A stretch of 64,000 nt of DNA. Origin: a virus. Shown piece by piece: positions 2,819 through 64,000 of this stretch; position 1 is the stretch's first letter; each line of letters starts with the position of its first letter. The notes beneath the pieces were generated by a model, which was given only the letters and a program-made list of their open reading frames with translations, searched no databases and was not told the origin of the DNA. A program made the position numbers and the translations under genes. The DNA is taken from IMG/VR virus record IMGVR_UViG_3300021141_000001; one strand, 5' to 3'.

Positions 2819-2849
2819 TTTGACAATTGAAATATATTCCTTATATTTG
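2819..2849 (+). promoter_or_regulatory. Bacteroidota-type primary sigma promoter (-33 TTTG / -7 TAnnTTTG)
   Basis: TTTG 2819-2822, 19-nt spacer, TATATTTG 2842-2849. Confidence 0.75.
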
Positions 2850-2880
2850 TATTATAAATAAATCATTAAATCACTACAAA

Positions 2881-3333
2881 ATGAACGGAAGAAAACTTAA
2901 AAACTCAGATGCTCTTAAATTTATCTTTGCTGGTAAATCAATTGTTACATTCTTAAACACTAAGACTGGTAATCGTTTTACCTTTAAGACTAAAGCCGCT
3001 AAAGACTCTAATATGTTTTTTGTTAGTGTTTTGAATGGTCCTGAGAACTGGGCTTATATTGGAACTTGTATTGAAGGTAAATTCAGACATGGTAGAAAAT
3101 CTAATATTTCTCAAGATGCTCAGTCTGTAAAAGTATTTGATTTTGTTTTGGCTAAACTTGTGGCTGGTACTTTACCAGAGTTTGTTGAAGTTTGGCACGA
3201 GGGATGCTGTGGTAAATGTGGTAAGAGATTAACAGTTCCTTCTTCTATTGAGAATGGTCTTGGCCCAGAGTGTATTAAAACTCTTACTAAAATGGAAAAG
3301 AGAGATAAATTCTTACAATTAATTTTAGGATAA
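2881..3333 (+). CDS. DUF6011-like zinc-finger protein with C-terminal RxxK-type tag variant
   Basis: CGKCGKRLTVPSSIENGLGPEC signature; ATG at 2881 downstream of the promoter; ends KRDKFLQLILG. Confidence 0.7.
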   Translation: MNGRKLKNSDALKFIFAGKSIVTFLNTKTGNRFTFKTKAAKDSNMFFVSVLNGPENWAYIGTCIEGKFRHGRKSNISQDAQSVKVFDFVLAKLVAGTLPEFVEVWHEGCCGKCGKRLTVPSSIENGLGPECIKTLTKMEKRDKFLQLILG

Positions 3334-53966: not shown

Positions 53967-56900
53967 TTATCCTAAAGCAGTACCAACTTTACCAGCTGTT
54001 GCCATTTCAACAAATATAACACCACCCGAAGATTGACCAACACCAGCACCAACACCACTAACAACTGTATTAGAGTTTTGAGTTTGAATACTATCTAAAC
54101 CAACTGATATATTATCTATAAAGCTAAAGTTAGAATTAGTATAATCAATAAAAGGTGATATTCCTTGATATGGAATTTGAATACCTTTATTAATATTATC
54201 TTCTGTAAAATATTGAAAGAATGGAATCATATCCACTTCATAAAAATGTAAATTATCAATTAAATATTCTACAGTTGTTAAAAATAAAGGACTATATCCA
54301 TAAAAATGCATGGCTAGATTTCTTTTATTATAAAAATATTCTGATTTTTTAGTTTTTGATGTTAGTAAATGATTTACATTATCATATACAGGTAAATATG
54401 TTGCGGTTGTTAATATTGATGATTCAATTCCACCACTAATAGTAAGTTTTCTATTAACAAAATTTAAGTTATTAAAGTGTATAGGTGGAACCTGTACATT
54501 ATTATTAGGTCCAAAATATTTATATGTATAAGGTGCGTGAGTAACTTTAGAACTTCCTTTCCAACTAAATTCGGTATAATCTGATATAATATTAGAAAAT
54601 GTTACTAAATCAAACTCAACTTTTGTATATCTGAATCTTTGAATCTCCTCATATGTTTTGTTTAAAATATCGTTTTCACTAAATGACGTTACATCTAATA
54701 TACCACCACTAGCAATTGCTTTTACTAACAATTCTTCTCCTGTTATTGAGTCAATACCTGTATATGTTGGTCTAGAAAATGTTAAAGATGAAACATCCCA
54801 TCTAGAAAATGTCCAACCATCTTTTATAAATTCATTTTCTCCAGGTATATTGATATATACTTCAGCACTTGCTGCTTGTGATGCCGTAGATGAAAGAAAA
54901 GATCCGCCAAATTCTGTTTCAAATTTACCAGCATCTCCTATAAAATCACTAAATATTTTATATTTTGTTCCTAGTTTATAACTTCTTATTGTTGTTGAAA
55001 AACTATCTCTAAAAGTTGAATCACTTTCTAATATATCATTTGTTGTATAACCATATAAGTTATTTTCTGAATAAGTTTTTCTTGATAAGGAATTTAATAA
55101 AGCTTGAGGTTTTCCTATGTTACTAGCATATGAATTATCAAATAATACATCCATCCATGAGTTATAAACAAATACCGCATCAGATTCTAATGAGTTATTT
55201 GATGTTATTTTAGATATATTGTTTGACTTGAATTTAACTTTTTGTAAAACACCTCTAGACATTTCAATTGTTACTGAACCACCTTCTAAAACAGAATCAG
55301 ATCCCCAATCAATGTCGGTTTTTATTTGGTAATTATTTACAACTTCCGTAACATAATGTTCACCATCATATTGAGGATTTATTGTTTTATCTGTTTTATC
55401 TATTGTTATTAAATCACCAACAGTAAGACCGTGTGGTTGTGAGAAAGTTAATCCAACACTACCAGCCTGAAATATCGTATCAACAAAATTAGGTATAGTG
55501 TATTCAGATGAACTAAAATGACCACCATCAAAAACACCATCAATCCAGTTTGTATCATACATTTCAGTAATCAATGGATATCCTTTAAATAAACCATAAT
55601 TCCAAATTCCCTTAAAATATCCATTTAAGAAACCACCAGATAACCAAACATTTTTTGTTACATAAATTCTGTGATGATCTGAGTCTTTTTTAACTCTTCT
55701 TATTGGGAAGTTATTATCAAATTCAACAATTATACTATTATCAGTTTTATTTATGATTGTATAATAACTTTTAAGTACTTTTCTATCCTCATTTATATCA
55801 ATTGCGATGATATTTCCAATTGAAACATTATCACCAATATTAAAATTAGAAACTGATGAAGTTGGACCTGTAATCTGTACTCTCCATCTTTTATTTCTAT
55901 TATATCCAAAGAACTGATTAACATTATGAAACTCATACATTCCTTCATCAACTCTCCAACCACTATTCCAAACTCCATTTTCCCAAATACCTGCTTTGAA
56001 TTTACCATTACCAATTTTTGAATAAATTTGACTAATTCCGGGATTTATAAGAGATGCCGTTGCGTTTACACTATTACCATTTCCAACAAGGGCCGTATAT
56101 GTTGCTCCTGTTAAACCAATAATAGGTGATGAGTATGTTAGACCAGTACTCATTATATATTGTCTATTGTTACCAGAGTAGTAACCACCATCAACTGTTA
56201 TATTTGATAAATATATAGATGAGTATGTTGTACCTGATGCTGATGCTCCAGCAAATCCACCAACAAAAATCAAATATTGATTTCCTCTAACTCCATAAAA
56301 TTGTTGAGAAATAGAAGATGTCAGTGATGTTGATCCAGATGGAGAAACACTTTGAGTTAATGTTGCTAGTAATACAGATCCACTCGGTGGTGTATAACTA
56401 TTAGACACTAAATTGGTCCAATCAGCAGGAGATTGAGATGGTGGAGAATATGATGTATATATCTTTAATGGAAAATCACTTTGATTTTGATAAGAAAATG
56501 AAAAGTTAAAATATGAATAAGGTACAAATTTAACTAAAGCATTATTTAATCTAAATCCAATATTTGATGTCTTACTGCCATTTGGACCACCAACTGGAAA
56601 ATATCCAGTATTTAACTGTGTTGCGTTAGATGCGGAACCTGTTACTCTATCATACCAATGATATTGATCAGAACTTTTATTATAATACCAACCAAGTGAA
56701 TTTGATACAATTGGTTGATTCTCACTAGCTGTTAGTCTATAATAAGAAAATCCTTGAATTTTAAAATCTATCTCATTTACGACAAAATCAGTTATGCCCT
56801 CATTTGCCACACCTTGACTACTAAATGTACCATTTGCTTTATAAACAACATGACTGGTTGATGTTATAGTTGATGTTGGTGTTGAGTAGTGAAAAAAACT

Positions 56901-57269
56901 TTGAGTAGCATTAAGTGTTGGTGCTACATTTGAAGCACTCATTCCACTATAGTATTTTAACTCATCTGATTGATTTGTCGGCCAAGGTGGAGATACTGAA
57001 AAAGATCCGTGTACCGCATATAAATTAACAGTGTGTGTTATAAATTGATAAGTTTTTTTAGATTCAAAAGTATATGGTGTTCCAACATGATTAAGTGTAT
57101 AAATATTATTAACAGCAGAAGATCCAATACCCACCACATTAATTTGTAGTCTACCAGGTGATGGTGCCGCATTATATATCCAATGTACAGTTGTACTAGG
57201 AGCAGTTGCTAGTGATACTGCGAGTGACATACCACTTGTCATTGATGAACCAAATTTACCTGATGGCAT
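53967..57269 (-). CDS. Large putative virion structural protein with G-x-W/F pentapeptide repeats
   Basis: GIWENGVWNSGW, WLSGGFLNGYFKGIWNYGLFKG; S/T/N-rich. Confidence 0.6.
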   Translation of the reverse strand: MPSGKFGSSMTSGMSLAVSLATAPSTTVHWIYNAAPSPGRLQINVVGIGSSAVNNIYTLNHVGTPYTFESKKTYQFITHTVNLYAVHGSFSVSPPWPTNQSDELKYYSGMSASNVAPTLNATQSFFHYSTPTSTITSTSHVVYKANGTFSSQGVANEGITDFVVNEIDFKIQGFSYYRLTASENQPIVSNSLGWYYNKSSDQYHWYDRVTGSASNATQLNTGYFPVGGPNGSKTSNIGFRLNNALVKFVPYSYFNFSFSYQNQSDFPLKIYTSYSPPSQSPADWTNLVSNSYTPPSGSVLLATLTQSVSPSGSTSLTSSISQQFYGVRGNQYLIFVGGFAGASASGTTYSSIYLSNITVDGGYYSGNNRQYIMSTGLTYSSPIIGLTGATYTALVGNGNSVNATASLINPGISQIYSKIGNGKFKAGIWENGVWNSGWRVDEGMYEFHNVNQFFGYNRNKRWRVQITGPTSSVSNFNIGDNVSIGNIIAIDINEDRKVLKSYYTIINKTDNSIIVEFDNNFPIRRVKKDSDHHRIYVTKNVWLSGGFLNGYFKGIWNYGLFKGYPLITEMYDTNWIDGVFDGGHFSSSEYTIPNFVDTIFQAGSVGLTFSQPHGLTVGDLITIDKTDKTINPQYDGEHYVTEVVNNYQIKTDIDWGSDSVLEGGSVTIEMSRGVLQKVKFKSNNISKITSNNSLESDAVFVYNSWMDVLFDNSYASNIGKPQALLNSLSRKTYSENNLYGYTTNDILESDSTFRDSFSTTIRSYKLGTKYKIFSDFIGDAGKFETEFGGSFLSSTASQAASAEVYINIPGENEFIKDGWTFSRWDVSSLTFSRPTYTGIDSITGEELLVKAIASGGILDVTSFSENDILNKTYEEIQRFRYTKVEFDLVTFSNIISDYTEFSWKGSSKVTHAPYTYKYFGPNNNVQVPPIHFNNLNFVNRKLTISGGIESSILTTATYLPVYDNVNHLLTSKTKKSEYFYNKRNLAMHFYGYSPLFLTTVEYLIDNLHFYEVDMIPFFQYFTEDNINKGIQIPYQGISPFIDYTNSNFSFIDNISVGLDSIQTQNSNTVVSGVGAGVGQSSGGVIFVEMATAGKVGTALG

Positions 57270-57318: not shown

Positions 57319-60300
57319 TTATGGTGTAAGAACAATCCCGACCTTGCCAGCAACAGCAAATGGATCAGTTACACTTGAATACCAACCGTTTGTTGATATT
57401 GTAGATGCTGTTGCTGACACAATAGTTCTTTCTTGGTCGGTATTTTGTAAAAATATATTCCATATGTGACAAGAAGATGTTCCGCTCCAAGACATACCTC
57501 TGTTTAATATTTGTAAAGTATAATCATCTGTCACATAACCATTAAATTCAAATGATGAACCATACCAGTTACCATTTCTCCAAAGACCATTTTCCCAGAA
57601 AACATTAAAAGCATTCATATATTGAGATGTTCCATTTTCCCATATCATACCAGTAGCTGTTCCTATAATAAAGTTTCCATTTTTCCAGTGTGAGATATAA
57701 AAATCACTTCCATCTAAATCACCATTTTCCCAATAACAAGTATTATCATTAAAATTAAAAGATGCTGTTGCTGATCCATTTCTTTTTACATAAGGATTGA
57801 ATGAACTATTTTTAAATTTACCTCTCTCAAATACTCCGTTTAACCAAACAGAACTACTCATCTCGCCGCTAGAATGACTAAAAGTTCCGGATACCCAAAG
57901 ACCATTTTTAAATTTAGCACTTCTAGGTGGTTTATTTACACCTTCTAAACTCATAGCCATTACTTGTTTTGTGAAAAACTTTTGGTCTTTAACAAATTTA
58001 TCTTTAATATTTGTAAAAATACCATCTCTCCATTTACCCCAATATGATTGACTATAAGAATCAACAAATATATTAGCGTTTCCACTTGTTAATCCTGAAA
58101 CTGGATTTCCACCACTTCCTTGAAACTCACCATATAAAAATACACCATTATTCCATACTCTACCTTTAAATACACCACCATTAAATTCACCTGTGTACCA
58201 AGTTGAATTCGTTAAACCATTAGCATTTCCAAATTCACCACCATTAAATGTTCCTTTTTCCCAACCATAATCTAATTGTGATGTACTTTCACTTTGTGTC
58301 CAGCCATAAGCTGATGTAAACTTACCACCATTAAATGTTCCGTTTTTCCATTTACCATTAGTTATGAATTGACCACCATTAAATATACCTTTTTGCCATG
58401 TTGCTGAGTGTGTAGCGTTTTGTAATATATCAGAGCCAAAAACACCATTAACAAAAATACCATTTAACCAGTTTAAGTTTTGATTTAAATTTTGATAATA
58501 ACTTGTATCAATAGAATATAATGTAGCATTTTCAACAATAGCATAACTCACAGTACCATTATATAAATGTGTATCTAAAGTAGAAACTTGATTACTACCG
58601 ATAATACCTTTGTTAAAGACACCATCATACCATTTTGAGTAGTTAAAATTACCATTAGAGAATGTACCAGACTCCCAATCACTCTTATAAAAATCACCAT
58701 CAATGAAATTACCACTTTGCCAAGAGTTTCTATTATTTGGCAAAGTTCCTTTTCTATAATAGGAATTTATATTTTCAGAATAATAATAAGGACTCACAAC
58801 ACTTGATGTTCCATTAAATGTTCTTGAGTTATAAAACCAACCATTTAAGAAATCTCCTTCAATCCATCTTGAGTCTCTGACAACACCATTACTAAATGTA
58901 CCACCATTCCATATTGAGTTTTGTATAATTCCTGAATTCCATACATCATCACCTTGAACAAAGAATGAGTTAATATATGTAGCATTTGATAAAATATTTG
59001 AGTTGTTAGAAAATATAGCGTCGGAAATAACTAAATTTCTAGCTTTTGCTAAATTTGTAAGATCTTTATCTAAATAGTTATATTCTAAATTTTGAATTAA
59101 TGAACCAGATAAATAAGTTCTTCTCATTAATCCTGATTTAATATTTGATTTACTTATTTTAAGTTTTTTTAAATGACCATATCTATTCTCCGCCTTATTA
59201 GTGTAGTAATAACCATTTGATGCTGATAAACTAATTATTTGACTAGCAGTTCCAATTTCTCGTAGTTTATAAACACCATTTGTATTTGAAATAACTTTAT
59301 AAGCATCAGGAATTCTAGAAACAGTTCCCCAGTTAAAATCCACAGAGTCTAAAAATACAACATCTCCAACATTTATTAATTTAGATTCGGGGTAATTAGA
59401 ATCATAAGATGTAGTTGCTGTAATATAATTTGAAGAATCAATTGATAAGTTATAATTTTCACCTAATAATGTTTGTACAGTTATATTATTATCATTATTT
59501 GATTCAATATGAGAGCCACTATTCCAATCAGAGTTTTCAATTAAACCACTATCAAAATCAGCATCTACTATATAAGCACTTGATACATCTATAATATTAT
59601 TTAATGGAGTAAGACTTGAAGAGTTATAGTTAAAATCTAAATTTTCTGTTGTTAAAGATCCTGTTTTATCATATCTACTTGACCATATATCAATAGAATA
59701 ATATTTACTATTAGGATTTGTACCAGCAATCTCGGTATAATATTTTGGTCCAGTGTATGGAGGAAATATAGCAGTAGATGTGTAATACTTATAAGAGTTA
59801 TCAGCAGGTGTTGATAAGAAAGCAGAATATTCATATCCTTTTTTACCAACTGTTGTTACTCCAAAGTTTTCTTCTGTGTATTCTGTCCAAGAACCTATCT
59901 TGAATTTTTTATCAAAAAAGTTTATAATATCTTTAGATAGATTATTAATACCTAAACCTTTAATATAAAATTTATCACCTGTTCTTAATCTATCATATCC
60001 ACTTTTATCAATATAAAACTTATAAACTTTCTGAACAACGTCATTAATAGAACTGAATGTAACAGAAGTTATAGCAGAAAACTCAGATGCTGCTAATTCA
60101 TCATAGGCATATATTTTAATAATATTATCACTATTATAAAATGAATCTTTCAATACTGAATTATTAAAATATGAGTTTATAGATTTACTTTTTTCAAACT
60201 TTGAATTATTTGCCTTTGTGTTTTTTAATTCAGAATTTTCTAAATATGAATTATTGAACTCACAATCATTAAAAAATGCTTGTTTAATTTCATTTGTATA

Positions 60301-61629
60301 AGGTGATTCAATTCCTAATATCTCATCTTCGACTATTGAATAAGTAGCACTTGATTGAGTACCAAATGTAGTTGTATAAAATGAACCATTTGTTATAGTT
60401 GATGTTTCTATTATAGAGTTAGCAACAAAATTATAACCTCTACCTGCGTTATTAGGTGAGTTAATTTTTTGATAAGGCAATCCATAATTATCAAATGAAG
60501 AAAAATAACTTTCACTTGAAGTGTATAATGAATTCATTGTTCCTTTTTTCCAAATAGTATTAATTAAGGTTCCAACATTCCAAACTGACTTATCACCATG
60601 CCATTTAATTCTTTTATCATATTGACCATATAGACCACAGTTCCATTCACCTCTGAAGTTACCATCTCTAAAGTTATTTTTAGTTAAATATGGTTTAAAG
60701 TAAGTAACATCAACTTCCCAAGAAGATTGTGTTGGACCAACTACCCATTTATAAACATATCCTTCTTTGAATTCTCTTCCATTATAAGTGAAATCAGCAT
60801 TCATTATTTTTACTCTATTTACATTTGAATATGTAGGAGAAAGAGCATATGAATAAGAACCACTATTAATAAAGTTTGTTGTTATATTAGTCCAACTAGC
60901 TGTAGAACTTCTTACATAAAATCCAGGCGCACCTGAAACACCATTATTCAATCCCCAGTTTTGAGTAGTTGAATAATTACTATCAATAAATGCTATATTA
61001 TTTTGATACCATTCAAATTTATGATTTATTTTACCTTCTCTTGTAGTAATCGCTCTATTGGCATGTAAAAATTCAGACGTATCTCTAATGTAATAAACTT
61101 TTATTAATTGGTCATCTGTAGCTGTTGAATATGGTGTAACTCCTGTATAGTCTATATCTAAAACAACTTGGCATTTATCTATGTGTAGAATTTTATAACC
61201 GTCTCTACCTTTTTTATATTTATTTTTTTCAATTAATAAATCACTATCATAAGCACCATTTATTATAAATACTCTATCTCCAGCTTTTAATTCAGAATTA
61301 ACTTCAGTATAAAAAAGAGTTTTTATAGAACCTTTTATTTCATATGGCTCTACCCAATTTAATAACTTAGAACTAAATGTTTTATTTGAATTTGAAACAA
61401 GACCTATTAGTGGATCATATCCAACTAGTTTTATATCCTTTCCTAAGTTTTGTAACTCAGCTCTTGTTATAAGTTGAGGTTTTGTTGATATCGTATTAGC
61501 AACCGCCGAAATACTTGCGTTTGTTAAATTTGGCACACTACTAACCGGTTCTTTGTATTGAACCTCCATAATACTAGGAATCTTAAAGATTTTTTTTCTA
61601 ATATTTATATCAACTGAAAATGTCGCCAT
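57319..61629 (-). CDS. Large putative virion structural protein with extensive W/F-x-x-G pentapeptide repeats
   Basis: Repeated W..G.F.GG units over the C-terminal third; late-type promoter upstream. Confidence 0.65.
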   Translation of the reverse strand: MATFSVDINIRKKIFKIPSIMEVQYKEPVSSVPNLTNASISAVANTISTKPQLITRAELQNLGKDIKLVGYDPLIGLVSNSNKTFSSKLLNWVEPYEIKGSIKTLFYTEVNSELKAGDRVFIINGAYDSDLLIEKNKYKKGRDGYKILHIDKCQVVLDIDYTGVTPYSTATDDQLIKVYYIRDTSEFLHANRAITTREGKINHKFEWYQNNIAFIDSNYSTTQNWGLNNGVSGAPGFYVRSSTASWTNITTNFINSGSYSYALSPTYSNVNRVKIMNADFTYNGREFKEGYVYKWVVGPTQSSWEVDVTYFKPYLTKNNFRDGNFRGEWNCGLYGQYDKRIKWHGDKSVWNVGTLINTIWKKGTMNSLYTSSESYFSSFDNYGLPYQKINSPNNAGRGYNFVANSIIETSTITNGSFYTTTFGTQSSATYSIVEDEILGIESPYTNEIKQAFFNDCEFNNSYLENSELKNTKANNSKFEKSKSINSYFNNSVLKDSFYNSDNIIKIYAYDELAASEFSAITSVTFSSINDVVQKVYKFYIDKSGYDRLRTGDKFYIKGLGINNLSKDIINFFDKKFKIGSWTEYTEENFGVTTVGKKGYEYSAFLSTPADNSYKYYTSTAIFPPYTGPKYYTEIAGTNPNSKYYSIDIWSSRYDKTGSLTTENLDFNYNSSSLTPLNNIIDVSSAYIVDADFDSGLIENSDWNSGSHIESNNDNNITVQTLLGENYNLSIDSSNYITATTSYDSNYPESKLINVGDVVFLDSVDFNWGTVSRIPDAYKVISNTNGVYKLREIGTASQIISLSASNGYYYTNKAENRYGHLKKLKISKSNIKSGLMRRTYLSGSLIQNLEYNYLDKDLTNLAKARNLVISDAIFSNNSNILSNATYINSFFVQGDDVWNSGIIQNSIWNGGTFSNGVVRDSRWIEGDFLNGWFYNSRTFNGTSSVVSPYYYSENINSYYRKGTLPNNRNSWQSGNFIDGDFYKSDWESGTFSNGNFNYSKWYDGVFNKGIIGSNQVSTLDTHLYNGTVSYAIVENATLYSIDTSYYQNLNQNLNWLNGIFVNGVFGSDILQNATHSATWQKGIFNGGQFITNGKWKNGTFNGGKFTSAYGWTQSESTSQLDYGWEKGTFNGGEFGNANGLTNSTWYTGEFNGGVFKGRVWNNGVFLYGEFQGSGGNPVSGLTSGNANIFVDSYSQSYWGKWRDGIFTNIKDKFVKDQKFFTKQVMAMSLEGVNKPPRSAKFKNGLWVSGTFSHSSGEMSSSVWLNGVFERGKFKNSSFNPYVKRNGSATASFNFNDNTCYWENGDLDGSDFYISHWKNGNFIIGTATGMIWENGTSQYMNAFNVFWENGLWRNGNWYGSSFEFNGYVTDDYTLQILNRGMSWSGTSSCHIWNIFLQNTDQERTIVSATASTISTNGWYSSVTDPFAVAGKVGIVLTP

Positions 61630-61675
61630 CTATTACCAAAAGGATTTTATGTATATATTATTTATTAAGACTTTC

Positions 61676-61706
61676 TTTGTAATTAAACTTTATTTAATTA
61701 ACTTTG
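61676..61706 (+). promoter_or_regulatory. Bacteroidota-type primary sigma promoter
   Basis: TTTG 61676-61679, 19-nt spacer, TAACTTTG 61699-61706. Confidence 0.7.
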
Positions 61707-61715
61707 TAAAATAGT

Positions 61716-62450
61716 ATGAATAAGAAAAAAGTATTGATTTTTACTGGAGCAGGAGTTTCAGCTGAAAGTGGCGTTGCTACTTTTAGAACTGGTGATGATG
61801 GGCTTTGGTATAATCATAAAGTAGAAGATGTTGCCACACCTAGTGGGTGGCGTAGAGATAGAGAAAAAGTTCTTAATTTCTACAATATGCGTCGTGCTCA
61901 AATGAAAGATGTTGAGCCAAATTTGGCGCATAAAATAATTGCTGAATTAGAAAATGATTATGATGTTACTGTTGTAACTCAAAATGTTGATGATTTACAC
62001 GAAAGAGCAGGCTCAACTAATATTATTCATCTACATGGTGAGTTAACAAAAGCTAGAGGCTGTATGTATGATCATAAAACATCACCATTAGACACAGTTG
62101 TTGATGTGGGATATAATCCAATTAATATTGGAGATAAATGTCCAACAACTGGCTCTCAATTAAGACCTCATATTGTTTGGTTTGGTGAAGATTTAGATCC
62201 TGATTTTGTTGATATGGCTACTAAAGCGGCTAAAGAATGTGATGTATGTATTGTTGTTGGAACTTCAATGAAAGTTTCACCTGCTAATACAATTCCATTT
62301 TTGACTAGAGAAACTACTAAGATTTACTATGTAGATTTATCAGACCTTGATTTCTATGTACCAGAATACAGAAATGACTTATTTACTCATTACCAAGAAT
62401 TGGCATCAACTGGTATGGAAAAAGTTAAAAACGATTTAAAAAATATTTAA
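61716..62450 (+). CDS. cobB: Sir2-family NAD-dependent deacylase
   Basis: TGAGVSAESG..TFR, PN.AH, TQNVDDLHERAG, LHG, RPHIVWFGE, VGTS..V.PA. Confidence 0.92.
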   Translation: MNKKKVLIFTGAGVSAESGVATFRTGDDGLWYNHKVEDVATPSGWRRDREKVLNFYNMRRAQMKDVEPNLAHKIIAELENDYDVTVVTQNVDDLHERAGSTNIIHLHGELTKARGCMYDHKTSPLDTVVDVGYNPINIGDKCPTTGSQLRPHIVWFGEDLDPDFVDMATKAAKECDVCIVVGTSMKVSPANTIPFLTRETTKIYYVDLSDLDFYVPEYRNDLFTHYQELASTGMEKVKNDLKNI

Positions 62451-62451
62451 T

Positions 62452-62682
62452 ATGAAAGAAGAATATTACAAAGACATATTTGGTGGTAAAAAATATGGCG
62501 ACTATATGGTTTATGGTTTAGATAAATCTAAAGAATCTACATATAGTGATTACACTGATTTACTTGACCAAATGAACGCAACATCCTTCACTGAAGAATC
62601 TGAAGAACAAAAAGCTATTCGTGAAGCAAAAGAAAAGGCTGAGAAAAGAAATAATAAGATTGACCAACTTTTAGGAGAATAA
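62452..62682 (+). CDS. Small protein with C-terminal RxxK tag
   Basis: Ends KRNNKIDQLLGE. Confidence 0.6.
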   Translation: MKEEYYKDIFGGKKYGDYMVYGLDKSKESTYSDYTDLLDQMNATSFTEESEEQKAIREAKEKAEKRNNKIDQLLGE

Positions 62683-62683
62683 T

Positions 62684-63247
62684 ATGTCACAAATATCAAT
62701 TGTTGATTGGATTACGGCTTTATTAATAGTCGTGCCTTTATTTGCTTTACTTATATCAATTCCAAGTTTTATCTCTATGTATAAACTTGGATTCAAAGCT
62801 TATGTAGAACAATTGATACTTTTGAAAACAATGTTGAAAAAGATATCATCTGGATATAAAATTACTCAAAATCAAGTTTATAATTACAGCGGTGTTAGTT
62901 ATAATGGACCAAAATCAGTAACACAAGTTGAAACTAATCATTTCTTTCCAATAGTTATTAATAAAGATAATCTCTTAGTTCTTAATAAGAAAGAAGGTCC
63001 ATTTAATACTTTACATATTCAGTATTGTAAACATGAAAATGATAACTGGGATAATAATATGGTTGAGATAAAAACCAGCAATTGTTTATTTACTCAAATT
63101 CTAAATGACAGATTTCAAAAAAAAGTTGATAATCTTATGAAAGAGTCTGTTCAACTTGATGGAGTTGAAAATCTAAATGAACTATTAAATAGTGAAATAA
63201 CTTCTATTAAAAGAGAAGATAAACTTAATGCTTTATTAAATGATTAA
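62684..63247 (+). CDS. Membrane-anchored protein with C-terminal RxxK tag
   Basis: N-terminal TM helix; ends KREDKLNALLND. Confidence 0.6.
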   Translation: MSQISIVDWITALLIVVPLFALLISIPSFISMYKLGFKAYVEQLILLKTMLKKISSGYKITQNQVYNYSGVSYNGPKSVTQVETNHFFPIVINKDNLLVLNKKEGPFNTLHIQYCKHENDNWDNNMVEIKTSNCLFTQILNDRFQKKVDNLMKESVQLDGVENLNELLNSEITSIKREDKLNALLND

Positions 63248-63404
63248 AAGAGACATTGTAATAGTTGACCATATCAGTATGATAAGTGCTACTACGGTAG
63301 ACCCATCCATATTGGAAAAACTTAATATTCGTGTTAAGAATATTCGTAAGTATAGAGGTCGTATTGAAAAACGAAAAGAAAAAATAAAAAGAATTTATGA
63401 ATAA
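63240..63404 (+). CDS. 54-aa RxxK-tagged protein with SF4-helicase Walker-B-like peptide; not in ORF track
   Basis: MIKRDIVIVDHISMISATTVDPSILEKLNIRVKNIRKYRGRIEKRKEKIKRIYE; overlaps both neighbours by 8 nt. Confidence 0.6.
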   Translation: MIKRDIVIVDHISMISATTVDPSILEKLNIRVKNIRKYRGRIEKRKEKIKRIYE

Positions 63405-63585
63405 AGAAACTCTTGATATATTTGGTCAATATCTAAATGGTAATAAACAAATTATGATGTTGAAGGCTAGGCAAACTGGTAAGTCAAGTGCCACCGCTTC
63501 TTTAATGGCTTGGAAACATCTTCATAGTAAATATGAAAGAGCAAGAACGAGAAAAGAAACCATAAAACGGCTTTTTAATATATAA
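63397..63585 (+). CDS. 62-aa RxxK-tagged protein with terminase-large-subunit Walker-A-like peptide
   Basis: IMMLKARQTGKSS; ends TRKETIKRLFNI. Confidence 0.65.
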   Translation: MNKETLDIFGQYLNGNKQIMMLKARQTGKSSATASLMAWKHLHSKYERARTRKETIKRLFNI

Positions 63586-63609
63586 CTCAACAAAAAGAAA
63601 TAAAATTTT

Positions 63610-64000
63610 ATGAATTTACAAGAATTACTTAATAAATGGAATATCAAATGTGATGTTAATACATTACTTTCAATGTGGAATGAATCTCATAGATCTTATC
63701 ATACCTTAAATCACTTAAATGATGTGATTGACCAAATCAACGAAAGTAAGTCAAAATACTCTGATAAAGAATATGAGAAGTTGATGTTAACAGCTCTTTT
63801 TCACGATTGTGTTTATGACCCAATGAAAAGTGATAATGAAGAAAAGTCAGCTGACTTCTTTATGGAATGCTGTTCAGATAAATCTAATTCAGACGTTTTA
63901 GAAGTAAAACAAATGATTTTAGATACAAAGACTCACCAAGCTACAACAAACCTTTCAGAGTCTTTTAATTACTATGATATGAGTATTGTAGAAAGAGATT
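63610..64000 (+). CDS. HD-superfamily phosphohydrolase (partial, runs off window)
   Basis: Manual translation: HRSYHTLNHL...ALFHDCVYDP..SDNEEKSA. Confidence 0.8.
   Translation, partial: MNLQELLNKWNIKCDVNTLLSMWNESHRSYHTLNHLNDVIDQINESKSKYSDKEYEKLMLTALFHDCVYDPMKSDNEEKSADFFMECCSDKSNSDVLEVKQMILDTKTHQATTNLSESFNYYDMSIVERD

Follow-up and report, generated by a model that had tools for sequence, protein, structure and literature searches.

The window analysed here is the whole stretch of 64,000 nt of the IMG/VR record IMGVR_UViG_3300021141_000001, which belongs to an uncultured freshwater lake megaphage with a genome of approximately 0.6 Mb. LR745206 and LR756502 are relatives of this phage, and proteome-wide tests were run on the whole 634.8-kb relative LR745206 (949 ORFs). 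Near the 3' end of the window lies a tight operon in which a sirtuin gene is followed by two tagged genes, a 54-aa gene, a 62-aa gene, and the gene of an HD-type hydrolase. The tag in question is found across the lineage, has the strict pattern R-x-x-K-[IL]-x-x-[IL]-[LFY], and ends a basic C-terminal helix. As the earlier note had reported, four consecutive genes carry it, namely those starting at 62452, 62684, and 63240 in the strict form and that starting at 63397 with T in place of K. The features of the operon are the following:

61676..61706, + strand: promoter-like pattern of the Bacteroidetes -33/-7 type (TTTG, 19-nt spacer, TAACTTTG), found by pattern search
61716..62450, + strand: CobB-type Sir2 NAD-dependent protein deacylase, first gene of the operon (Pfam SIR2, 2.8e-47)
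62452..62682, + strand: 76-aa tagged small protein with a strict-tag tail
62684..63247, + strand: 187-aa tagged protein with a hydrophobic N-terminal segment and a strict-tag tail
63240..63404, + strand: 54-aa mini-protein consisting of a helicase Walker-B-like head, a basic helix, and the tag (87 homologous clusters)
63243..63299, + strand: head of the 54-aa protein, residues 2-20, like the SF4 Walker B (H2) strand and loop in profile searches
63372..63398, + strand: tag of the 54-aa protein, residues 45-53, strict pattern, nearly invariant in the family
63397..63585, + strand: 62-aa mini-protein consisting of a terminase Walker-A-like head, a helix, and the tag (171 homologous clusters)
63403..63528, + strand: head of the 62-aa protein, residues 3-44, like terminase residues 95-132 (PHROG, hhalign, and reciprocal profile)
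63550..63576, + strand: tag of the 62-aa protein, residues 52-60, with T for K, followed by an invariant N-I
63610..63999, + strand: start of an HD-type phosphohydrolase of 185-188 aa whose 3' end lies beyond the window, identified by homology

The sirtuin also matched the NCBIfam NAD-dependent protein deacylase model (2.3e-62) and PHROG 2162. The run of tagged genes had been described as lying downstream of the sirtuin and of a host-sigma promoter, of which the sirtuin is confirmed; the promoter-like pattern is indeed present and ends 10 nt 5' of the sirtuin start, but the window contains 7 copies of it where 4.6 +/- 2.1 are expected, and because this count is not above chance, the pattern is at most consistent with transcription by the host polymerase. 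Two recurrent upstream motifs of the phage, known from before other genes, are absent at their usual distance here. The 76-aa protein had no family match in Pfam and PHROG searches, and with its tag removed it had no significant match in the LR745206 proteome, so that no larger phage parent was detected. The only match of the 187-aa protein in that proteome was its own orthologue (E 4e-40), and relatives of this protein occur in the related loci L008, L009, and L010. A full-length homologue of the HD gene (L008:4923-5480) matches PHROG 19425, a phosphohydrolase (1.4e-17), and the HD gene closes the locus in all relatives, being found downstream in L001, L002, L008, L010, and L205. No gene of the operon matched a defence or anti-defence family in PADLOC, and NCBIfam and PADLOC returned nothing for either mini-protein.

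Conservation and selection of the two small genes

Both mini-ORFs are genuine, conserved genes under selection. The start of the 62-aa gene overlaps the stop of the 54-aa gene by 8 nt on the same strand, and the gene order of the locus is kept in L008, L010, and L203. With L008 as reference (the comparison with L010 was left out on account of indel misalignment), dN/dS was 0.19 for the 54-aa gene and 0.21 for the 62-aa gene, compared with 0.20 for the neighbouring Sir2 gene. The homologous clusters (87 for the 54-aa and 171 for the 62-aa protein) are nearly all 33-110 aa in length, and on this ground we rejected the possibility that the mini-ORFs are pieces of a split or frameshifted larger gene. 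The longer homologues of the 54-aa protein number only two, both of them chimeric, with 109 and 117 aa. Some database entries show longer N-terminal 'extensions', which appear to stem from start calls at upstream sites; in L008, such a call was seen directly to run through the tail of the preceding gene in the other frame. Among 1.84 billion proteins, the 62-aa family has 35 representatives (50% identity) with E <= 0.001, all of which are small proteins except four long repeat proteins; the long matches in this search, DUF4116 and propeller-type repeats among them, were taken as false positives.

Between the sirtuin and the HD gene, the content of the locus is exchanged among relatives. L205 carries the 62-aa gene without the 54-aa gene, which weakens the idea that the two form an obligate pair making up a split mini P-loop unit. 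The orthologue of the 54-aa gene in LR745206 has drifted far and has kept its tail.

Segments resembling the replicative helicase and the large terminase

The 54-aa ORF reads M-I-K-R and then DIVIVDHISMI at 63252-63284, just as the earlier note had read it on this strand between 63240 and 63404. When a profile of its head (tag removed) was searched against the LR745206 proteome, the DnaB-like helicase ranked first among the 949 ORFs, the match falling on residues 313-327 (E 0.0018, 12 bits; next match 6.6 bits), and hhalign placed the same helicase first of 874. Against the helicase family profile, the head gave a P of 5.7e-5, compared with 0.044 for the terminase control. In the reciprocal direction, a profile of the helicase segment recovered the 54-aa ORF with E 0.0018 and 14 bits (next match 4.4 bits), and a PDB profile search with the 54-aa family returned residues 419-451 of T7 gp4, the Walker B region, as its top five matches (E 0.12). 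The SF4 Walker B/H2 strand hhhhD[HY] is present at residues 5-15 of the 54-aa protein; D5, D10, and the tail are invariant in the family, and these two residues line up with the conserved Asp pair of the helicase strand. The protein matched no helicase PHROG and no Pfam family, DnaB_C included, and Walker A, the H3/H4 motifs, and the arginine finger are absent from it. A match of the family to a 'nicotinamide phosphoribosyl transferase' PHROG was set aside because it lies in the tail region and not in the head. The AF2 model contains a long C-terminal helix and a head of low confidence. On the strength of these sequence comparisons, the resemblance of the 54-aa head to the helicase Walker B is above what chance would give.

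In the 62-aa ORF, the octet K-A-R-Q-T-G-K-S at 63463-63486 bears out the RQxGK[ST] Walker A-like motif that had been noticed there. The only match of its head among 38,880 PHROG families was phrog_2, the large terminase (E 0.004), and this match falls in the profile region where the relative's own terminase Walker A segment maps; 6 of the 21 family members scanned match phrog_2 and one more matches another terminase family (7/21). Alignment with the terminase family by hhalign gave a P of 0.0011 over 38 columns, compared with 0.59 for the helicase control. Terminase residues 95-132 run from the helix that follows the adenine-binding YQ through strand 1 and the P-loop to helix 1, and the alignment includes a K-E-x-L-D-x-F helix outside the motif first noticed. 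When a profile of the terminase Walker A segment was searched against 1,023 proteins, the 62-aa ORF and its LR745206 orthologue were the top two non-self matches, and among the 114 GK[ST] sites in the LR745206 proteome, RQ.GK[ST] is found only in the terminase and the 62-aa orthologue. In forward searches with the 62-aa head, the terminase ranked 9/949 with HMMER and 5/874 with hhalign against single sequences.

The 62-aa protein had no Pfam match at E <= 1 (the Terminase_6N threshold was missed), no terminase appeared when its family profile was searched against the 1.84 billion proteins, and a PDB profile search with the family gave just an unrelated weak match. Walker B, the catalytic Glu, the coupling motif, and the RNase-H-like nuclease domain are absent, and a complete terminase ATPase domain is excluded because 62 aa leave no room for it. 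Across the 21 family members, the Walker lysine position 29 is occupied by K, R, A, M, S, or Y, whereas K23, R25, and G28 of the head are invariant and S30 and W39 are kept in at least 90%; the head motifs of both mini-proteins are kept down to 33-44% identity. The AF2 model of the 62-aa protein is a helical hairpin in which pLDDT exceeds 90 solely in the C-terminal helix. The resemblance of this head to the terminase Walker A probably exceeds chance.

The links to helicase and terminase are supported because searches that were not told their target converge and because the cross-controls are negative, and the reading of the two heads as copies of helicase and terminase motifs holds at the level of sequence. 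The earlier note had proposed profile alignment to TerL and SF4 helicases as a check and the lack of any match as grounds for abandoning its view; both heads match in unbiased searches, and those grounds fall away because the heads resemble SF4 Walker B and terminase Walker A segments. Neither mini-protein can be an enzyme or ATPase, since they lack all the other motifs and since the family tolerates replacement of the Walker lysine.

The C-terminal tag and possible roles of the mini-proteins

In LR745206, the strict tag lies within 6 residues of the C-terminus in 62 of 949 ORFs, compared with a mean of 0.33 tagged ORFs (maximum 3) after composition-preserving shuffles of the last 20 residues, by which we rejected a composition artefact of A-rich gene ends. 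Position for position, the tag is about 120-fold more frequent at the C-terminus than in protein interiors, and about a tenth of the small proteins of the phage carry it. In the tail of the 62-aa family, R52 and N61 are invariant and I56, F60, and I62 occur in at least 90% of members, and the tag helix is confident in the AF2 models of both mini-proteins. By a crude BLAST comparison, matches to larger proteins were found for 9 of 98 tagged and 44 of 640 untagged small ORFs; as such matches are no commoner among tagged small ORFs, the tag and the fragment may be independent features. Eight larger tagged proteins were scanned and all lack a Pfam domain, so that none is a recognisable replication enzyme, which leaves the idea that the tag is a sliding-clamp tail without support.

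We tentatively suggest that the two ORFs may encode two-part, tagged, microProtein-like mimics, a prediction to which we give somewhat less than an even chance. Judged by sequence, the 54-aa head is a copy of the Walker B strand and loop of a DnaB/T7-gp4-type replicative helicase, and the 62-aa head is one of the stretch of a T4-type large terminase that begins with the helix ahead of the P-loop and continues through strand 1 and the deviant P-loop itself (x-[AS]-R-Q-x-G-K-[ST]) to helix 1. By offering such a segment of a motor protein, each head could bind whatever packs against or recognises that segment, candidate partners being the parent ATPase during folding or ring formation, or a chaperone, a protease, or a sensor, and the tag would couple the complex to one putative reader common to about a tenth of the small proteins. 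The relative shows a wider pattern in the same vein, as LR745206 also contains small ORFs in which parts of the Gp23 capsid protein are reproduced. Against the microProtein-like reading stand the shortness of the copies (16-40 residues, mostly strands that are buried in the parent P-loop fold) and the AF2 models, in which the heads are of low confidence and are modelled as helices. It is unlikely, in our judgement, that the lineage runs a genome-wide system of tagged mimic peptides, in which dozens of small proteins would join cut-outs of core machines (helicase, terminase, capsid, sheath, and others) to an address helix serving a single hub, and which could blind host sensors, control assembly of the phage's own machines, or sabotage that of rival phages; the neighbouring 54-aa and 62-aa mimics would then be two of its members.

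If instead the heads are leftovers of partial duplications that became fused to a tag cassette, function would reside in the basic helix and the tag, and the head would be a generic hydrophobic or folding element with no tie to helicase or terminase function, the tag marking, for example, a cargo or ligand of the reader. We regard such exapted debris as doubtful yet worth keeping in view: conservation and modelling confidence are both highest in the tail, two neighbouring tagged genes lack a detectable parent, and likeness to fragments is no commoner in tagged than in untagged small ORFs; the far drift of the LR745206 orthologue of the 54-aa gene around a retained tail and the exchange of content in the sirtuin-HD slot point the same way. 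However, the head motif is among the most conserved parts of each family (D5 and D10 in one; K23, R25, G28, S30, and W39 in the other), and leftovers are not expected to retain exactly the conserved residues of the parent. That the likenesses arose by chance, two unrelated small tagged proteins having hydrophobic, strand-like N-termini that by accident look like Walker motifs to a reader primed for hallmarks, appears quite improbable. All E-values are marginal database-wide (0.12 against the PDB, 0.004 against PHROGs, and 0.002-0.05 against a database of 1,000 proteins), Pfam gave nothing, and the terminase was not top in forward single-sequence searches, but independent target-blind searches converge on the predicted protein and the predicted segment, the cross-controls are negative, and the terminase alignment extends past the motif that prompted the search.

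The interpretation in the earlier note, which is partly supported overall, was that the peptides are decoys expressed early, ahead of the true triggers. On this model they would occupy host pattern-recognition sensors, Avs-type or motif-sensing, until the genuine terminase and helicase are made. Both of the latter include documented Avs triggers, namely large terminase and, in primase-helicases, the RecA-type ATPase domain (PMC13581612), the heads resemble these two trigger proteins, a host-type promoter-like pattern lies 5' of the operon, and systems reading short motifs exist, such as Lit and CapRel (cited in PMC13581612). Nevertheless, Avs1-4 and newer families, including the helicase/RecA-sensing Avs20, are reported to recognise whole folds by direct binding through extended interfaces, independently of catalytic residues (PMC13581612), for which 16-40 residues of mostly buried strands make a poor copy. 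Because Avs sensors read whole folds, the Avs-decoy role is weakly disfavoured, as is early expression of the mini-proteins; the freely varying Walker lysine of the terminase-like head also agrees poorly with a decoy of the active site, PADLOC gave no match to a defence or anti-defence family, and the promoter pattern is not above chance. Taken as a whole, the decoy explanation seems to us improbable to a considerable degree. Very improbable is a minimal peptide that binds phosphate or nucleic acid, with the 62-aa protein acting as an oligomer or together with the Walker-B strand of the 54-aa protein, as a natural counterpart of engineered beta-(P-loop)-alpha polypeptides. The layout of strand, P-loop, and helix, the very basic helix, the adjacency and translational coupling of the two genes, and the binding of nucleotides and ssDNA by the engineered polypeptides (10.1101/2020.07.30.228619, PMC10119929) would agree with it, but several members carry A, M, S, Y, or R in place of the Walker lysine, in L205 the 62-aa gene stands without its partner, the 62-aa family is twice as widespread, and the AF2 model lacks a strand-loop-helix unit.

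If the heads are functional mimics, we know of no earlier case of a phage in which pieces smaller than a domain, copied from its own ATPases of replication and packaging, form separate, selected genes with a common address tag. Such mimics might give the phage a new way of evading immunity, by acting as decoys for sensors of its core proteins, or might, alternatively, add a new layer of microProtein-type control after translation, or of competition between phages, among the largest phages known, and two peptides of 54 and 62 residues would be cheap bait for the tag reader. If the heads are debris, the locus would show how small genes of huge phages are born from core-gene fragments and a portable tail.

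Comparison with known systems

Terminases of the T4 gp17 type (PF03237, PHROG 2) share with the 62-aa protein a deviant Walker A, the hydrophobic strand before it, and the helix after it, and residues 95-132 of the lineage's terminase also align with the K-E-x-L-D-x-F helix; in contrast to these enzymes, the 62-aa protein has only about 40 such residues, fused to the tag helix, and the lysine is not conserved. Among SF4 helicases (T7 gp4; DnaB_C, PF03796), the pattern D-h-h-h-h-D-[HY]-[IF]-[ST]-h-h is common to T7 gp4 419-429 and the 54-aa protein and is also found in the lineage's own helicase (residues 313-327), whereas the 54-aa protein comprises no more than the strand plus the loop or helix start that follows and lacks the N-terminal domain.

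The mini-proteins agree with microProteins in that each is small and related in sequence to a segment of a larger protein encoded in the same genome (PMC5381583). The nearest working analogy may be plant miP1a/b, in which a fragment of a CONSTANS domain and a short C-terminal TOPLESS-recruiting motif bridge CONSTANS to TOPLESS (10.1101/258228, PMC8418433); the combination of a fragment with a short C-terminal motif is, judged by sequence, also what is seen here, and the phage tag would likewise recruit a common partner. However, such miPs copy a whole interaction domain and are eukaryotic, whereas the phage mini-proteins copy a sub-domain piece of an ATPase core, and segments of such a core are not known to serve as interaction domains. 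The engineered beta-(P-loop)-alpha prototypes (10.1101/2020.07.30.228619, PMC10119929) are similar in size (~40-60 residues) and in their strand, P-loop, and helix, but they are designed ancestral consensus peptides, whereas the natural 62-aa family tolerates loss of the Walker lysine.

As short viral proteins that may imitate part of a protein on which a host immune sensor acts, the mini-proteins are also comparable with K3L, from which they differ in copying the virus's own proteins and in being smaller than a domain. Vaccinia K3L, a mimic of eIF2-alpha, reproduces a host-protein domain that can fold and has been demonstrated to bind PKR. Docking tails at the C-terminus are likewise well known, such as the clamp-binding tails of T4 gp43, gp55, and gp33, PIP boxes, Clp degrons, and adaptor tails. 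Like these, the tag is a short, hydrophobic-patterned peptide at the C-terminus of many unrelated proteins, but its consensus is a different one, R-[DK]-x-K-[IL]-x-x-[IL]-[LF].

The sirtuin-HD operon and its mini-genes

The window has 29% G+C. Its region 61600-64000 shares about 74% DNA identity with LR745206 (634.8 kb) and LR756502 (642.4 kb), both uncultured megaphages. Their published description (PMC9723777) ranks them as the largest megaphages from freshwater and the subsurface and places them as sisters of the marine Mar_Mega_1. The 949 greedy ORFs of the complete LR745206 served as a stand-in proteome in proteome-wide tests. A tight plus-strand operon runs from 61716, from a Sir2 gene through an HD gene:

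61716-62450, +, CobB-type Sir2 deacylase, first gene of the operon
62452-62682, +, 76-aa protein carrying the C-terminal tag of the lineage
62684-63247, +, 187-aa tagged protein with a hydrophobic N-terminus
63240-63404, +, 54-aa mini-protein
63397-63585, +, 62-aa mini-protein
63610 onward, +, HD-type phosphohydrolase

From the first gene to the fifth, each stop codon abuts or overlaps the following start (by 8 nt in the last two pairs), a gap of 24 nt precedes the HD gene, and ORFs on the minus strand beneath both mini-genes reach just 22-41 aa. The gene order is kept in three IMG/VR contigs (L008, L010, and L203; 89-476 kb) and, in a diverged version, in LR745206. Different genes fill the sirtuin-HD slot in LR756502 (a 138-aa protein, L002:3759-4175) and in the related locus L205 (a 198-aa untagged protein, L205:1899-2495). 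Since its contents differ between relatives, the slot is variable and acts as a hot-spot for cassettes of small genes. A metagenomic 117-aa protein (P0244) consists of about 63 N-terminal residues from the 187-aa protein followed directly by the 54-aa mini-protein, which looks like a deletion between neighboring genes.

Both mini-ORFs are genes. At 90% identity, 171 homologous clusters were found for the 62-aa protein and 87 for the 54-aa protein, nearly all of 33-110 aa, and longer relatives of the latter are limited to two chimeric variants. Values of dN/dS against L008 are 0.19 (54-aa gene) and 0.21 (62-aa gene), with 0.20 for the sirtuin gene. The 62-aa family profile, searched against 1.84 billion representative proteins, retrieved 35 proteins at E <= 0.001, which were small except for four long repeat proteins taken as false positives; no terminase was among the matches.

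A Bacteroidetes-type -33/-7 pattern, whose occurrence in the window is not enriched, lies directly upstream of the sirtuin gene. Most other window genes preceded by a gap carry a AATATATA-like motif or a T4-late-like TATAAATA motif followed by an A-run, 20-35 nt before the start (e.g., upstream of 4327(-), 9638(-), 27503(-), 28364, 37173, 39932, 53967(-), and 57319(-); and of 16177, 48225, and 48902), and these motifs probably mark two phage promoter classes. Neither motif was found at the usual distance from the sirtuin operon. The neighboring large proteins of 1,100 and 1,436 aa (53967-57269(-) and 57319-61629(-)) are rich in N, S, G, and W/Y repeats, and show a weak pentapeptide-repeat match and similar A-G-K-V-G C-termini; they are likely paralogues serving as fibre or surface proteins.

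Similarity of the heads to helicase and terminase

The earlier note had described a helicase- and a terminase-like mini-protein within a run of four tagged genes, and our analyses bear this out. In the 54-aa family, conservation is concentrated in the tail and in the N-terminal head, where D5 and D10 never vary. A profile of the head (residues 1-36, without the tag) placed the helicase first among the 949 ORFs (Walker B, residues 313-327; E 0.0018; 12.0 bits vs 6.6 for the runner-up), and hhalign ranked it first of 874 single sequences (P 1.4e-4). Against a profile of 64 helicase family members P was 5.7e-5 (terminase control, 0.044). Reciprocally, helicase residues 308-350 searched against 1,023 proteins gave the 54-aa ORF as the best non-self match (E 0.0018; 14.0 bits vs 4.4), and the top five of 177,635 PDB sequences for the family profile were all T7 gp4 residues 419-451, including Walker B (E 0.12). 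Head and helicase have in common the pattern K-x-D-h-h-h-V-D-[HY]-I-[ST]-h-h. No helicase model in Pfam or PHROG was reached, as expected because the similarity spans about 16-20 residues. The relationship is very probably not due to chance. Across loci L157 and L160 (IMGVR_UViG_GVMAG-S-404869-56_000001) and L152-L156, the DnaB-like helicase of some relatives is matched as two segments, residues 1-206 and 201-443, separated by about 1.5 kb of the same contig; at several loci the match begins only at residue 206. This pattern suggests that an element (intein, intron, or homing gene) has inserted close to Walker A.

Large terminases of the relatives are of the T4 type (Terminase_6N). The sole match of the 62-aa protein at E <= 1 among 38,880 PHROG families was the large terminase phrog_2 (E 0.004; still the sole match, at E 0.015, without the tag), of which it covers positions 276-323, the Walker A segment of a relative's terminase covering 268-312; Pfam gave no match. 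Six of the 21 family members scanned (33-66% identity to the protein in the window) matched phrog_2 and one a second terminase family; every other family was matched at most once. Against 82 lineage terminases, hhalign paired residues 3-44 with terminase residues 95-132 (P 0.0011; 0.59 for the helicase control), and the aligned stretch takes in a K-E-x-L-D-x-F helix that precedes the motif first noticed. In the reciprocal direction, a profile of terminase residues 92-136 had as its two best non-self matches the window ORF (E 0.053) and then the orthologue in LR745206 (E 0.17). Forward single-sequence searches with the family gave a weaker outcome, placing the terminase 9th of 949 (HMMER) and 5th of 874 (hhalign). 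The LR745206 proteome has only two RQ.GK[ST] sites, one in the terminase and one in the 62-aa orthologue, compared with 114 GK[ST] and 19 canonical G-x4-GK[ST] sites. This relationship, too, is quite likely not fortuitous. Sequence comparison supports the reading of the heads as fragments, well for the helicase and moderately for the terminase. No parent protein was detectable for the 76-aa and 187-aa tagged genes.

The C-terminal tag and possible functions

All four small operon genes finish in R-x-x-[KT]-[IL]-x-x-[IL]-[LFY]. Of the 949 LR745206 ORFs, 62 have the strict form (R-x-x-K-[IL]-x-x-[IL]-[LFY]) within 6 residues of their C-terminus (shuffled tails: mean 0.33, maximum 3); per position, the strict form is ~120 times rarer inside proteins. 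Its carriers are mostly of 40-250 aa and their genes are clustered. AF2 predicted a long helix for both mini-protein tails (pLDDT above 90 in the 62-aa protein). One tagged protein (168 aa, window 2827-3333) matches DUF6011 (1e-9), the sole Pfam domain among those scanned. Tails of 54-aa family members P0196-P0204 (residues 16-59) weakly match positions 266-309 of 315, the C-terminal end, of PHROG 16547 (annotated as nicotinamide phosphoribosyl transferase); a member of this PHROG may have a comparable basic tail or tag.

Neither mini-protein has room for the remaining motifs of a complete ATPase. Members of the 62-aa family all share K23, R25, and G28, and at least 90% of them keep S30 and W39, whereas the Walker lysine (position 29) may be K, R, A, M, S, or Y, implying selection on shape or contacts of the segment rather than on catalysis. 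This variability, together with L205, where the 62-aa gene lacks its 54-aa neighbor, weakens the idea of a minimal P-loop binder, which appears improbable. The reading we tentatively prefer is that of microProtein-like adaptors, whose head would copy part of a larger protein and whose tail would recruit a common partner, much as Arabidopsis miP1a/b bridges CONSTANS and TOPLESS (10.1101/258228, PMC8418433). On a limited literature check, such an architecture appears undescribed for phages.

Exapted debris is a possible but less favored origin, and chance resemblance is unlikely. It is likewise unlikely that the mini-proteins are early-made decoys for Avs-type immune sensors, as the earlier note had proposed. 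Avs systems are indeed triggered by terminase and by the RecA-type ATPase of primase-helicases; however, the paper that documents this (PMC13581612) emphasizes that whole folds are recognized via extended interfaces, with no need for catalytic activity, whereas the heads are sub-domain pieces. No defence-database match was found either, and the decoy mechanism is somewhat disfavored. The heads also consist mostly of strands that lie buried in the parent P-loop fold.

A crude BLAST survey of LR745206 shows that it does encode small ORFs that copy portions of larger proteins, but at no higher frequency among tagged ORFs than among untagged ones. Several copy the Gp23 capsid protein, so mini-copies of core proteins are a wider habit of the lineage. 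The Gp23-type major capsid protein lies at 200752-202434 (Pfam Gp23, 1.8e-26), and differing pieces of it are matched by small tagged and untagged ORFs (loci L011-L042; BLAST E 1e-18 to 4e-5), e.g., at 291407-291880, 93266-93520, 255010-255237, 554784-555284, and 207176-207907.
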